Assembly: GCF_046714055.1 (NCBI RefSeq)
Contig: NZ_JBKKBJ010000273.1
Span: 1 to 63,770 of the forward strand
Reading direction: 5' to 3'
Source of the DNA: Methyloglobulus sp.
GTDB taxonomy: Bacteria; Pseudomonadota; Gammaproteobacteria; Methylococcales; Methylomonadaceae
Length of the DNA: 63,770 bases
Part shown: piece by piece, positions 10,646-16,254 of the stretch
Numbering within the stretch: position 1 is the first letter of the stretch
How the letters are laid out: each line of letters starts with the position of its first letter
The notes under the pieces: generated by a model
Databases searched by the model: none
What the model saw: the letters and a program-made list of their open reading frames with translations, nothing else
What the model was told of the DNA's origin: nothing
Position numbers and translations under genes: made by a program

Positions 10646-10776
10646 GGGAATCTCTAAAAATTCAAAAATCTCCTTCTCCCTTAGGGAGAAGGCTGGGATG
10701 AGGGGATTAGAATCAAGCAGTTATATCCCTCACCCTAACCCTCTCCCAGAGGGAGAGGGGATTATTAGAAATTCCC
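10646..10776. mobile_element. IS5-type MITE carrying a CCCTCACCCTAACCCTCTCCC-type palindrome pair
   Basis: TIRs GGGAATCTCTAAAAAT / ATTATTAGAAATTCCC (14/16 complementary), TTAA on both flanks. Confidence 0.8.
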
Positions 10777-11664
10777 TTAACGCTTATTGTAAACAACCCG
10801 GCCCAAACCCCTAATATCATAATCGCCGAGTTCTTTAGCTTTGTCGGCAAACGCTATTGATTGGCAGAATACCAACATTTTTTGGATGGGTGGTTCAAAA
10901 TAATCGAATCGCCGCATGATAAGGTCAAACCTTTCTTTGGCTAACGGTATGAAATCGAGATGCAATTGTTTTGCAACCGATGATACCGCCAGTCCCACAT
11001 CCGCCCTGCCCCCTGAAATTGCCAAACCCACCTCCATCTCGGTCCTGGCAAGCATGTCGATTATGTTCAGCTTGTTTTCAGCGATGCCGGATTTTTCCAA
11101 TAGATGATCCAGCAATATCCGGCTACCCGAACCGTTTTGCCGGATTACCAACCTAGGTTGTTTGGCAAGCAAATCGGCAAGGTTTTGTATAGCCAGTGGA
11201 TTATTCCTGGCGACAATCAAGCCCTGTCCACGCCAGGCCCATTCCAACACTACAATGTCCGCGTCCTGCAAGGTTTGCTTAACAACCGGGACATTGTATT
11301 CACCCGTCTCGACATCCAAGACGTGCATGGCACAGATCATCGCCTCGCCTGCTGAAAAACGGCTAAGCCCTTCCAGGCTGCCGGTCGTTTGCATCGCCAT
11401 CGCCGAAACGCTTTCACGTAAAGCCCATTCCAGCAAGGGATCGTGGCTACCGACCATGATTTCAGGAATGGTTTTGAAACGTAAATCCTGCAAACTGGTT
11501 TCGCTGTTGTTCATCAACCAAAGGTCGATCAAGTGCCTGGAAAACAGCCACTTCCCGGTAACCCGTGTACAAGGTATCTGCTTTTGCGTGATCAGGTCAT
11601 AAATCTTGCGCTCTTTAACGCGCAGGTAATCTGCGATCTCATGCACAGTCATCATTTCAGTCAA
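10777..11664 (-). CDS. excisionase-type HTH plus PBP (molybdate/tungstate-type) transcriptional regulator
   Basis: MTVHEIADYLRVKERKIY...GKWLF N-terminus, GSHDPLL and RQNGSGSR motifs; this family commonly lies beside formate dehydrogenase genes. Confidence 0.85.
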   Translation of the reverse strand: MTEMMTVHEIADYLRVKERKIYDLITQKQIPCTRVTGKWLFSRHLIDLWLMNNSETSLQDLRFKTIPEIMVGSHDPLLEWALRESVSAMAMQTTGSLEGLSRFSAGEAMICAMHVLDVETGEYNVPVVKQTLQDADIVVLEWAWRGQGLIVARNNPLAIQNLADLLAKQPRLVIRQNGSGSRILLDHLLEKSGIAENKLNIIDMLARTEMEVGLAISGGRADVGLAVSSVAKQLHLDFIPLAKERFDLIMRRFDYFEPPIQKMLVFCQSIAFADKAKELGDYDIRGLGRVVYNKR

Positions 11665-11892: not shown

Positions 11893-12459
11893 ATGAAAAA
11901 AATCAAACTATTTCTCGCTTCGTCTGCGGAATTAAAGCCGGAACGGGGAAAATTCGAGCTGGAAATCTACCGTAAATGCAAGGCCTGGTTTGATAACGGC
12001 ATTTTTTTGCACCTGGATATTTGGGAAGACCTGTCGGCGCGAATGTCACTGGCCGGTTCGCAGGCGGAGTACAACAAGTTTGTCGAGGCGGCCGACTTGT
12101 TTGTGCTGTTAGCCTACAGCAAAGTCGGCATGTACACGGCGGCGGAATTTGAAAAGGCCTTTGGGCAGTTTAAATCCACACAAAAGCCATTTATCTTCAC
12201 TTATTTCAAAACCGATCCTGCATCGCCCGATGCCAGTCTCGACCAGTTTAAACAAAAGATACATGATCTGGGACATTTTTACAGCCCGTTTGCTGATTCC
12301 AATGATCTTTGGAACCAGTTCAACAAAGAATTGGAGCGGTTGGAGACAAATGACTTTGTCGAAAACAAGCAAACCCAGCAGCCTAGCCGAATTGTCCAGC
12401 AAGGCGATAAAAGTGTGTATGTAGAAAAGGCCGACACGCTAACCTTGAACATTCAATGA
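11893..12459 (+). CDS. TIR/DUF4062-like effector with C-terminal amyloid-like signalling motif
   Basis: KLFLASSAEL..ER, ADLFVLL, GMYTAAEFEKA (TIR-like Glu) and IFTYFK motifs; tail RIVQQGDKSVYVEKADTLTLNIQ. Confidence 0.75.
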   Translation: MKKIKLFLASSAELKPERGKFELEIYRKCKAWFDNGIFLHLDIWEDLSARMSLAGSQAEYNKFVEAADLFVLLAYSKVGMYTAAEFEKAFGQFKSTQKPFIFTYFKTDPASPDASLDQFKQKIHDLGHFYSPFADSNDLWNQFNKELERLETNDFVENKQTQQPSRIVQQGDKSVYVEKADTLTLNIQ

Positions 12460-12468
12460 GTTAGCGCC

Positions 12469-15072
12469 ATGAACGATCAAAATCGCAATGTCCAGCAAGG
12501 TGAAAAATCGGTTTATGCTGAACAAGGTGATGTTCATATCACCTATGCAGGCGAACGCGAAATCCTCCGCGCCTTAACCGAATCGCCTTTTAGACCCGAA
12601 GTATTTCTCGGTCGTGAAGACGACTTGGACGCTATCAAAAAAAGCTTGTTTTCAGAAAATAATCTATTGTTGGTCAATGGTAATGGCGGCGTAGGTAAAA
12701 CCTCAATAGCATCTACTTATTACCACCGTTACCAACATGAATATGCCCATACTGCCTGGATATTAAGCGAAAAAAGCATCGCTAATGCTATGTTATCTAA
12801 GTTGTCTACGCCTTTAGCGCTACAGTTTGAAAATACCATGCCCACTGAAAAAAGGCTTGAATTATTGCTGATGGCAATGGACTCCTTAAACAAACCTTGT
12901 CTCTTGGTGATTGATAACGCCAATGAAGTGGAAGACCTTGAAAAAAATTACCAAAACCTACGCCGATGTAGCAATTTCCACTTATTGTTGACGACCCGAA
13001 TTACCGAATTTGAGCAAGCGGAACTCTATCGCATAGACGGTTTGCCGGAAAATCAAGCCCTGGCATTATTTGAAAAACACTATCGCAAAACACTTCAAGA
13101 TGATGAAGTCGCTATTTTTAAACAAATCCGCACTGCTGTTGGTGATAATACTTTGGTGGTGGAGTTATTGGCTAAAAACATTTATCAGTTTAACCGTCTG
13201 AAAGCCCATTACTCGTTGGCCAATCTGTTAAACGACCTGCAATCCAAAGGCTTGCTGGCGCTATCGAAAAGTCAGGCGGTCGGTACCGATTATCAATCGA
13301 AAGGCAGTTTACGCAAGGAAAAGCCCGAAGACATTATTGCGGCTATGTATGATTTGGGTGAACTCTCATCCAAAGAAACGGCAATACTCTCGGTATTATC
13401 GGTACTGCCTGCCGAGAGCATTGGCTTTAACACCTTGGAAACCTTGCTGCCGTCACCAATGTTCGAAAATTTAGAATCCAACCTGCTCTTCCTCGCTCAA
13501 AAAGGTTGGATTGAATATAACGAAGATAACGCTGAGTTCAAATGCAGTCCTGTTATACAGGAAATCACCAAAAAGAAAAATCCACAGTTACTTGATGATT
13601 GCCAATCACTTATCGAAACGCTGATAGAAAAATTGAATTATGAAGGCTGTCACATTACCGGTTCTAGCTACGAAGATGCCGCTTTGTTTTCCCGCTATGC
13701 CGAATCGGTTGCCGCTGGCTTCAATGAGTCTCACAGTAATCTCGTCATTCTCTGCGAGAGAATCGGCGTTTACCACGAGACAACAGGCAACCTTGATAAG
13801 GCCTTGGCTTTTTTTAAATACAACAACTATTTAGTACAAAAACTCTATGCCTACTACCCGAGCAATGTCGAACTCAAGGGTGCCTTGCAAATTTCCTACT
13901 CCAATCTAGGCCATGTGTATAAGAAGTTGGAAAATTTGGAACTAGCCTTAGAATTGTTTGCAGAGTCTTTTGAGTTAAGCAAAGAACTCCATGCCGCCTA
14001 CCCGACCGATGTTAACTTTAAGTGTGACTTGGCGATTTCTTTGCAACGTATGGGCGAGACACACACCGCCTTGGGGAATTTGGAACAAGCCTTGGGATTT
14101 TATGGAAATAACCTTGAATTATCCCAAGAACTCTATGCTGCTGACCCGCCCAATATCAGGTTTAAGAATGGCTTGGCGTGTTCTTATCAATGTATGGGCG
14201 AGACACACACCTCATTGGGGAATTTGGAGTTGGCCTTGGGATTTTTTGAAGGCTTCAACGAATTATCCTTAGATCTCCATGCTGCCTACCCAACGGAGGT
14301 CGGCTTTAAAAATACATTGGCGATTTCGTGCGATAAACTGGGTGAGACTCACGCCGCGTTGGGGAATTTGAAACAAGCATTGGGGTTTTTTGAAAACTTC
14401 AACCATTTAGAGCAAGATCTTTATGCCGCCTATCCGAGCAATGTCGAATTCAAAGGTAATTTGGCGATTTCCTACGAAAGACTGGGCAAAACTCACTTCG
14501 CGTTAGGGGATTTGGAACAGGCCTTGGGTTTTTATCAAGACTACAACCGCTTGGAAAGTGAACTCCATGCCGACTACCCGGGCAATGTCGGCTTTAAGAA
14601 TAGCTTGGCTATTTCCTGCCAATTTTTAGGCAATACCCATGCCGCACTGGGCGACTTGGTACAGACCTTGGATTTTTATCAAGCCTGCAACCATTTGGAA
14701 AATGAACTCCATGCCGACTACCCGAGCAATGTCGGCTTTAAGAATCAATTAGCGGTTTCCTACCAATTTTTAGGCATTACCCATGCCGCACTGGGCGATT
14801 TAGGACAGGCCTTGGGTTTTTATAAAGACTACAACCGCTTGGAAAGTGAACTCCATGCCGACTACCCGGGCAATGTCGGCTTTAAGGATGGCTTGGCGGT
14901 TTCCTACGCCAAACTGGGCGGGATATATGAACAAACCGGCGATAAAGAGCTAGCGGCACAGTATTACCGCCTAGCACATGCCTTATTGACGGAATTGGCG
15001 GACAATTTTCCAAGCTATGTTGAGTTCAAAAATCATCTTACCTGGGCAGAAAATAAATTAGCCAATTTTTAG
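12469..15072 (+). CDS. STAND NTPase (NB-ARC-like) plus TPR array, i.e. a bacterial NLR, with N-terminal amyloid-like motif
   Basis: FLGREDDL, Walker A GNGGVGKT, Walker B LLVIDNA, LLLTTR; nine 48-aa TPR units; N-terminus RNVQQGEKSVYAEQGDVHITY. Confidence 0.9.
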   Translation: MNDQNRNVQQGEKSVYAEQGDVHITYAGEREILRALTESPFRPEVFLGREDDLDAIKKSLFSENNLLLVNGNGGVGKTSIASTYYHRYQHEYAHTAWILSEKSIANAMLSKLSTPLALQFENTMPTEKRLELLLMAMDSLNKPCLLVIDNANEVEDLEKNYQNLRRCSNFHLLLTTRITEFEQAELYRIDGLPENQALALFEKHYRKTLQDDEVAIFKQIRTAVGDNTLVVELLAKNIYQFNRLKAHYSLANLLNDLQSKGLLALSKSQAVGTDYQSKGSLRKEKPEDIIAAMYDLGELSSKETAILSVLSVLPAESIGFNTLETLLPSPMFENLESNLLFLAQKGWIEYNEDNAEFKCSPVIQEITKKKNPQLLDDCQSLIETLIEKLNYEGCHITGSSYEDAALFSRYAESVAAGFNESHSNLVILCERIGVYHETTGNLDKALAFFKYNNYLVQKLYAYYPSNVELKGALQISYSNLGHVYKKLENLELALELFAESFELSKELHAAYPTDVNFKCDLAISLQRMGETHTALGNLEQALGFYGNNLELSQELYAADPPNIRFKNGLACSYQCMGETHTSLGNLELALGFFEGFNELSLDLHAAYPTEVGFKNTLAISCDKLGETHAALGNLKQALGFFENFNHLEQDLYAAYPSNVEFKGNLAISYERLGKTHFALGDLEQALGFYQDYNRLESELHADYPGNVGFKNSLAISCQFLGNTHAALGDLVQTLDFYQACNHLENELHADYPSNVGFKNQLAVSYQFLGITHAALGDLGQALGFYKDYNRLESELHADYPGNVGFKDGLAVSYAKLGGIYEQTGDKELAAQYYRLAHALLTELADNFPSYVEFKNHLTWAENKLANF
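13741..15036 (+). repeat. nine tandem 144-bp TPR-coding repeats
   Basis: Units LAxS..xLGxTHxALGxLxxAL.F...L..EL.A.YP.NV.FK..; 14517-14598 and 14805-14886 differ at 1 of 82 nt. Confidence 0.9.
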
Positions 15073-15173
15073 TCAGGGTGGGCAGTGCTTTTCTGCATAC
15101 CGTTTTATTGGCCAATGGTGGGCAAACGATACCAACAGTAGGCGCTTTAGGCGAAGCAGTTTGCCCTCCCTAC
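15073..15173. repeat. REP-like element (AGGGTGGGCA...TTGCCCTCCCTAC)
   Basis: Complementary ends plus an internal GGTGGGCAAA copy, at the NLR/fdhD junction. Confidence 0.6.
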
Positions 15174-15189
15174 ACGACTTACCTCAGAA

Positions 15190-16023
15190 TTGGGATGGCC
15201 CAGCTACCAACTCAGTAAGGTTGAACGCTGGCATGGTAATCAACATACAATCCAGCAAGACTATATAGCCGAAGAAGCCCCTGTTTCTTTAATCTATAAC
15301 GGCACACCCCATGTCGTCATGCTGGTAACACCGACCAACCTGGAAGACTTTGCCTTGGGGTTCAGTATCACGGAAGGTATCATTGAAACACCCTCCGAAC
15401 TGCAATCCATACACATTTATAACCGCTCCAATGGTATCGAGGTACGGTTGGATATTCCCGAATCCCGCTTTTGCCATTTATCCGGCAAAGGCCGTAATCT
15501 GACCGGAGGCACCGGATGCGGACTGTGCGGTGCCAGCACCTTGCAACAAGCCATACGCGATCCAAAATAAGTGCAGGGTAGCCTCAATGTGGCTGCATCA
15601 GAACTCTTATCTGCTTTGGCAGAAATAAAGCAACATCAACAGCTTAGCCAACTGACTGGAGCCGTACATACCGCCGCCTGGGTAGTGCCGGGGCAAGGCG
15701 TACAAACTGTCAGGGAAGACGTAGGTCGGCATAATGCCTTGGACAAGCTGATCGGCTTGCTAATCCGCATCGGCAAGAATCCGGCAACAGGCTATGTCAT
15801 AGTCACCAGCCGCGCCAGCTATGAACTCATACAAAAGGCCGCCAGTGTCAGCATAACGCTATTGGCCGCGATGTCCGCACCGACTGGGTTAGCTATACGT
15901 TTGGCGGAGGAAGCCGGACTCACCCTGGTCGGCTTTGTCCGAGACAACCAGCACGTTGTCTACACCCATGCCGAACACTTGAACCACACCATTTACCCAA
16001 CCTTGATAAAAAAATCCAACTTA
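15190..16023 (+). pseudogene. fdhD: formate dehydrogenase sulfurtransferase FdhD interrupted by an in-frame TAA (15568-15570)
   Basis: IAEEAPV, LEDFALGFSITEG and GCGLCG before the stop; TGAVH, EDVGRHNALDK, SRASYEL and SAPT after it in the same frame; no ATG start and no stop before fdsD. Confidence 0.85.
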
Positions 16024-16254
16024 ATGCACATCGAAAAATTGATCTCAATGGCAAATGACATTGCCGATTTTTTTAATGCGGAAAGCGACAAAGAAATCGC
16101 TGCCGAAGGCGTAAAAAAACATATCCTACGGTCATGGGATCCACGCATGAGAAAGGCAATTATCAAGCATTATCAAGCAAGTGGCGAAGGATTGAGTCCT
16201 TTGGCAACACAGGCTATGAAAAAACTCTTGGAAATGAATCAACAAAAAGTTTAG
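16024..16254 (+). CDS. fdsD: NAD-dependent formate dehydrogenase delta subunit
   Basis: KLISMANDIADFF...GVKKHILRSWDPRMR; in frame with the FdhD C-half. Confidence 0.85.
   Translation: MHIEKLISMANDIADFFNAESDKEIAAEGVKKHILRSWDPRMRKAIIKHYQASGEGLSPLATQAMKKLLEMNQQKV

Follow-up and report, generated by a model that had tools for sequence, protein, structure and literature searches.

A TIR-like effector and an NB-ARC/TPR receptor of Methyloglobulus sp. share a matching tail and head motif, probably amyloid-like, encoded in a block that is exchanged among related loci

Two adjacent genes in a 63,770-nucleotide (nt) stretch of DNA from Methyloglobulus sp. (contig NZ_JBKKBJ010000273.1; hereafter the window) encode a small TIR-like protein, the effector, and a large NLR-type protein, and the C-terminal tail of the first carries the same short motif as the N-terminal head of the second. 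Together the two proteins probably constitute a split NLR, in which the matching motifs would stack in an amyloid-like manner and so cluster and switch on a predicted NAD+-destroying enzyme during phage infection, a reading that draws on sequence, models and analogy. It starts from the gene order, a shared motif kept at the protein level, tails and heads that match across homologous loci, exchange of the block that encodes both, and fused versions of the system that lack the motif. Coupling of the pair is well supported by sequence comparison.

The effector gene (188 amino acids; 11893-12459) and the NLR-type gene (867 amino acids; 12469-15072) lie on the forward strand, as do all features given below, and 9 nt separate the stop codon of the former from the start codon of the latter. 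The open reading frame (ORF), an AlphaFold2 (AF2) model and structural matches describe the effector as a TIR-like (NIR/DUF4062-like) domain followed by a flexible tail, and the ORF and Pfam describe its partner as a motif-bearing head, an NB-ARC domain and repeats of the TPR type, with no enzymatic N-terminal domain. The effector-side motif, of the class here called type A, comprises the final 23 residues, RIVQQGDKSVYVEKAD (12388-12456), and is modelled with low confidence as a monomer; its NLR-side counterpart, RNVQQGEKSVYAEQGD, comprises residues 6-26 (12484-12546). Eleven of 16 aligned residues are identical, and 5 of those 11 are specified by differing synonymous codons. The ORFs, the 9-nt gap, the positions of the motifs, this identity and the synonymous differences are all as described in the original prediction, which was made by a model from the letters of the window. 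The cognate alignment scores 57 against a best of 35 in 200 shuffles, and when all six frames of the 3.45-Mb genome are searched, the pattern QG[DEKQP]KS[VIT]Y has exactly two matches, namely the window's own tail and head. The effector is present in single copy in this assembly, in which no close NB-ARC paralogue was found. The GC content of the locus resembles that of its surroundings, and scans of it for promoters and terminators gave matches at chance level only. An assembly artefact at the junction is ruled out because positions 12419-12569, which take in part of the tail, the junction between the genes and the head, recur with six differences in a contig from another study.

Pairing of tail and head recurs across homologous loci. 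The 116 loci surveyed (35 from genomes, 80 from metagenomes, and the window) were reduced to 78 distinct ones by dropping 31 (7 were fused and 9 open, 9 were partial or carried frameshifts, 2 had short tails, and 4 lacked a downstream ORF) and removing 7 duplicates. Each tail was compared with residues 1-110 of the ORF that follows, and a match was counted when it was better than shuffles at p<=0.05; by this measure effector tail and following head match in 67 of the 78. The gap between effector and NLR genes in homologues is mostly -8 to 40 nt. Across the 28 loci with an NB-ARC partner the mean cognate score is 56.0, against 31.0 +/- 2.7 for permuted pairs (maximum 43.6 in 20000). With the addition of L011, in which the NLR is interrupted by a stop codon, there are 29 NLR loci, whose motifs were assigned to type A (QGxKSVYxE; 15 loci), type B (IKNQFN; 11), type C (KIYNI; 2) and one other, in classes set after the sequences had been viewed. 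The types of tail and head agree in 29/29 of these loci and in 6/6 independent pairs (p 0.03). Types A and C may be distantly related. The match is conserved at the protein level, with saturated synonymous sites, because codon sharing is no higher than codon usage predicts: among 314 identical residues with degenerate codons the codon itself is shared at 151, against 141.6 expected. The same figures rule out recent DNA duplication or gene conversion as the source of the match. Protein-level conservation of the motif had been proposed at the outset, together with pairing in homologous loci as the prediction's own test, and both are borne out.

The most unusual feature of the system is that the paired motifs are exchanged as a cassette. 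A block of about 190 nt, running from the tail through the stop and start codons to the head, is exchanged between near-identical backbones, an observation that is new here; in the window, DNA alignments and identities place the exchangeable block (effector linker and tail, stop codon, 9-nt spacer, start codon and NLR head) at 12358-12555. The motif types are dispersed across the tree of effectors, with 12 changes against a mean of 11.7 after shuffling, and a single type A clade is rejected both on that tree (p-AU 1.7e-70) and on an NB-ARC tree that leaves out three short NLRs and L011 (p-AU 2.2e-48). These two trees rule out inheritance of motif type along with the backbone. Motif type departs from the backbone trees because a type-specific block sits between near-identical flanks: in DNA alignments, near-identical effectors and NTPases bracket 170-230 nt that are unalignable between types. 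For five locus groups picked from the trees (19 of the 29 loci), the identity of the block amounts to 0.50 for 18 pairs of differing type (0.48 in shuffles, maximum 0.54) and to 0.77 for 12 pairs of the same type, with identities of the two flanks of 0.83 and 0.74 between types and 0.82 and 0.78 within them. Tail and head are neighbours in the DNA, and therefore a single recombination event swaps both and leaves the coupling code unbroken. Code changes may be selected by phage decoys or by insulation from other pairs in the cell. Viral contigs yielded no effector homologue and, by alignment scan, no type A decoy; two type A pattern matches occur in them, both at the end of an unrelated phage protein. 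No cassette switch was seen in the window's own lineage among contigs of 4 of 14 runs, which give patchy coverage.

The TIR-like domain of the effector (residues 1-155; 11893-12357) is modelled with a mean pLDDT of 84.6 as a five-stranded alpha/beta domain in which strands alternate with helices, the tail being unconfident. Its best structural matches are to TIR domains, among them TIRAP (Z 12.0; root-mean-square deviation 3.3 over 135 aligned residues) and TIR-STING (Z 11.3), and MilB, an N-glycosidase type of enzyme, scores as well as the TIRs. Glu85 (12145-12147), which the AF2 model places at the start of the helix that follows strand 3 (residues 82-96), is Glu in 149 and Asp in one of the best 150 relatives; its conservation and position suggest a catalytic role. 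The proposal of a TIR/DUF4062-like effector with a candidate catalytic Glu is thus upheld as to fold, by the model and structural matches, and as to conservation of the residue; the Pfam cut-off for DUF4062 is missed and catalysis remains a prediction. No curated family matched the window effector, which gave a weak PADLOC PDC-S60 match at its N-terminus, and a profile of its family gave nothing significant against the sequences of solved structures. Among 16 family members, sub-threshold matches are to NPHP3 in 12 and to TIR_2 in 5. Sequence and model suggest that the family, which numbers 4521 representatives at E<=0.001, is a relative of the NIR/DUF4062 NADases and would destroy NAD+. Fusions of the domain to NB-ARC-TPR, NACHT, Roco and SIR2 proteins occur in a sample of 30 from the best 150 relatives; all-in-one fused counterparts include P0036, P0052, P0090 and P0119, and P0082 has a DUF4062-like N-terminus. 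In L120 (G003:C470), and likewise in many representatives, the TIR-like domain forms the C-terminal domain of bacterial LRR-Roc-COR (Roco) proteins.

The NLR contains an NB-ARC domain at residues 49-238 (12613-13182; Pfam PF00931, 41.9 bits against a cut-off of 23.5). Within it can be read GNGGVGKT at residues 71-78, which we take to be the Walker A motif, and LLVID ending at residue 149, presumably a Walker B-like motif. Pfam and repeat comparison place about eight 48-residue TPR-type repeats at 13873-15024, of which the late copies are 86% alike in DNA and have a few variable positions. Only 38 residues precede the NB-ARC entry region, as expected from the earlier claim that this protein has no effector domain of its own. 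The pair is unlike the single-protein Avs (AVAST) systems with their fused N-terminal effector: the curated Avs4 model reaches 16.9 bits against a cut-off of 1500, the weak PADLOC Avs4 match is confined to the NTPase, and the effector is a separate gene. At about residues 360-365 (13540-13570), which we assume to be the position equivalent to MHD, 73 of 120 relatives have C-S-P without the usual histidine.

Effector, motif and receptor occur in several combinations. Among the 120 closest NLR relatives, 14 carry the effector domain fused ahead of NB-ARC in place of the motif, 53 have a short head only, and others carry EAD11, CHAT, TIR or caspase domains; most fused forms lack a linker motif of this kind. 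At L129 a type A pair joins an NLR to a small helical protein, which by eye we take to be EAD11-like. A second type A-headed NLR (L125) of genome G061 has no effector directly upstream and could signal to the effector on another contig. No conserved downstream receptor gene was found in the NLR loci inspected. In many Bacteroidota loci the effector is paired through type C or type D motifs with an unannotated protein of about 465 residues, followed by an NTPase that by eye is presumably nSTAND1-like, and fusions of effector and 465-residue protein exist. At the N-terminus of this partner (L004:5581-6978 and about 20 similar loci) a short helix is flanked by two beta motifs; the protein gave no Pfam match and no Foldseek match, and its helical domain gave weak HEPN-like structural matches (Z 5-8). 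Tandem motifs of types D and C are found in the effector tails of L022, L029, L036, L043, L045, L047, L048 and L094, and mostly match the two motifs of the partner protein. At L029 a free-standing ORF of 35 amino acids, 9 nt after the effector (which ends at 1664), consists almost only of the type C motif and is possibly a decayed partner or a regulator. The type A motif is rare in one Bacteroidota family, since its profile matches in 2 of 301 genomes.

Under the preferred reading, that of a split NLR with amyloid-like coupling, the TPRs would bind a phage product and NB-ARC would then oligomerize; the NLR heads, bunched together, would seed a cross-beta fold to which the tails of effectors are recruited, crowding of the effector would activate the NADase, and the ensuing loss of NAD+ would abort infection. 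The loci have what characterizes pairs of the bacterial amyloid signalling (BASS) type: a motif shared in at least five non-redundant pairs (type A in 15 of the 29 NLR loci), adjacent collinear genes with a short gap, an NB-ARC protein with TPR repeats and no effector domain of its own, and a fused all-in-one counterpart. Several points weigh against the reading, among them the ways, given above, in which motif classes and locus groups were chosen. Eleven of the 78 loci have no significant match of tail and head; among them are loci that lack a partner gene, loci whose partner is truncated or broken, and one with a visible match below threshold. A beta-arch composition would be rich in Q, N, G, V and I and poor in K, P and L; the tails of type A contain 18% I, 8.8% G, 7.9% Q, 7.3% N, 5.8% V, 0.3% P and 2.1% L, but 10.4% Lys, whereas BASS motifs are reported to be Lys-depleted (10.1101/2020.01.06.895854). 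Compared by eye with one of six validation folds of the BASS data set (PMC8086366), these tails do not have the richness in G and N of BASS1-3. MilB (Z 11.4) and 2'-deoxyribosyltransferases (Z 10.7) are tied with TIRs among the structural neighbours, the window effector has no PF13271 (DUF4062) match at the Pfam cut-off, and DUF4062 is sub-threshold in 5 of 16 family members (best E 0.0034). The window's neighbouring genes are housekeeping genes and form no defence island, and most swapped loci are unclassified metagenome contigs. Because tail and head are physically linked, their co-switching alone is no proof of interaction, which is argued for solely by the protein-level match inside each of several unrelated blocks. 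A predicted complex of three tails and three heads scored 0.02 (mark 0.32), which has no bearing either way.

The strongest alternative, though an unlikely one, keeps the coupling and dispenses with self-propagating amyloid: a small closed beta-zipper or two-rung dock would tether one effector to each NLR subunit, giving a receptor like the fused ones, and NLR oligomerization would cluster the enzymes. In its favour, motif-less fused forms are common (14 of 120), so that tethering would suffice; the motif is short, single-copy and charged; and when a related partner protein is modelled with AF2, similar motifs form short strands inside the monomer. A simple dock, however, needs complementary sequences, whereas near-identity is what in-register stacking predicts; two-sided identity recurs in at least four unrelated types, and the tested motifs of the same gene arrangement were amyloid (10.1101/2020.01.06.895854; 10.1101/2024.11.07.622273). 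Still less probable is coupling as proposed with another output, such as synthesis of a signalling nucleotide, cleavage of another nucleotide in the manner of MilB or a deoxyribosyltransferase, or a trigger other than phage. The structural tie just described, the missed DUF4062 cut-off and the lack of defence neighbours speak for it; yet the family occupies effector positions (NLR N-termini and Roco C-termini), the NLR loci inspected share no downstream receptor gene, and the NIR domain of PsAvs2, a proven NADase, gave the same mixture of structural matches (10.64898/2026.09.04.749371).

It is very improbable that each cassette is a relic without coupling function, left from the splitting of a fused gene in which a linker was locally duplicated. 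A distance of only about 100 nt separates tail from head and fused forms exist, as such an origin would have it, but the idea is already disfavoured because residues still match while synonymous sites are saturated; the linker motif is also absent from most fused forms, and this pair of motifs is found with a different protein upstream as well (L129). Beyond the preferred split-NLR reading, we advance only tentatively, as something we would sooner doubt than assert, that these loci represent a widespread module in which a NADase is amyloid-templated by an NLR and the coupling cassette of about 190 nt recombines between four or more mutually unrelated amyloid alphabets without any change of sensor or enzyme, a diversification of signalling specificity that resembles phase variation and is driven by phage-encoded amyloid decoys.

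The closest homologue, at 87%, is in a Methylococcaceae record, and 16 congeners contain one 87% orthologue and one weak fragment. This patchy presence, with a close orthologue in 1 of 16, is consistent with an accessory defence gene. The flanking genes of the locus are not adjacent in the congeners searched, and short dispersed repeats with many copies in the genome and in congeners flank the region at 10700-10780 and about 15070-15170. The adjacent fdhD (15190-16254) seems broken, having an in-frame TAA at 15568-15570 and no 5' start region, and is either a pseudogene or an assembly error. Its 3' half reads through into a small ORF that we take to be fdsD-like. In congener G010 fdhD is intact (288 amino acids), a small ORF stands apart from it, and a formate dehydrogenase-like gene lies upstream.

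Although the principle is known, an exchangeable cassette of paired motifs serving an enzyme effector is unexpected. In the literature consulted, bacterial amyloid signalling has been shown only through a membrane-targeting effector, and TIR-type partners are bioinformatic mentions. In the present family the predicted loss of NAD+ would give amyloid templating an enzymatic read-out, and near-identical sensors and enzymes that differ only in their paired tag form a natural set of controls. Direct tests thereby come within reach for two questions, whether an enzyme effector is activated by templated assembly and what lies behind the great diversity of signalling motifs. Synthetic biology could also make use of orthogonal 20-residue tag pairs as switches for an enzyme.

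Related systems are known from bacteria and fungi. BASS effector/NLR pairs form fibrils and cross-seed, and TIR2, CHAT, hydrolase and cyclase partners of BASS motifs are minor cases (10.1101/2020.01.06.895854). Like BASS1-10, the window family has collinear genes with a short gap, a motif of about 20-25 residues at the effector C-terminus and the NB-ARC/TPR N-terminus, and all-in-one counterparts. BASS1-10 were defined on Bell effectors, mainly in Actinobacteria and Cyanobacteria, whereas a single enzyme family in Bacteroidota and Methylococcales records, alpha/beta and TIR-like and not a Bell-type helical protein in the window, here employs four or more types of motif, which are exchanged in the form of a cassette. 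An exact-word search of the published sequence set (PMC8086366) found no type A or type B words in the BASS files, and KIYN twice in unassigned Bell tails. The Bab/Agp system (BASS11) likewise has adjacent genes that share a motif, proven to be amyloid and required for abortive infection, and BASS11 is also noted on TIR and NB-ARC proteins; its effector, however, is membrane-targeting and Bell-like, its sensor is a TPR-GreA/B-PIN protein, its fragment T-I-G-S-V...N (a five-residue stretch and N100 compared) is unlike type A, and the Bab and Agp trees are congruent with one motif, unlike those of the window family (10.1101/2024.11.07.622273).

NIR/DUF4062 domains deplete NAD+ against phage through a conserved Glu, and the activity of TEP1-TIR increases with concentration (10.64898/2026.05.01.722283; 10.64898/2026.09.04.749371). 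PsAvs2, Vulcan, Vesta and Swarozyc resemble the window system in their TIR-like fold, conserved Glu and association with STAND/TPR sensors. They differ in that the domain is fused to the sensor or paired with a phosphatase, and in that the window family lies below the PF13271 cut-off; amyloid-type coupling does not appear in the available parts of these papers, and the word amyloid occurs 0 times in that of the Swarozyc paper (10.64898/2026.05.01.722283). In the fungal NWD2/HET-S, HRAM, PP and sigma systems a sensor also templates its effector through a shared motif, the motif families have distinct specificities, and co-location is thought to help co-inheritance (PMC9815663, PMC7889193). These fungal pairs also have repeat arrays of high internal similarity; fungal effectors differ in being mostly membrane-targeting HeLo-type proteins, sequence similarity to the window motifs is not shown, and exchange of motif pairs between near-identical backbones was not seen in the portions compared. 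Further literature was compared to the same partial extent (PMC12261475, PMC13506858, PMC8195603, 10.64898/2026.10.19.760177). A search outside subscription papers found none on the window effector family with paired motifs or cassette exchange, a negative that excludes bioRxiv Fig. S5, Table S2 and Extended Fig. 1B, where TIR/BASS pairs are listed and related motifs could be present. The suggestion in the original prediction that the motif may be new therefore stands in part: its words are not found in the BASS1-10 data set, and the design is less new than was implied because partners of the TIR type have already been published for such motifs. The motif-coupled effector/NLR design is thus already known, and the motif families and their exchange as cassettes are what the present loci add to it.

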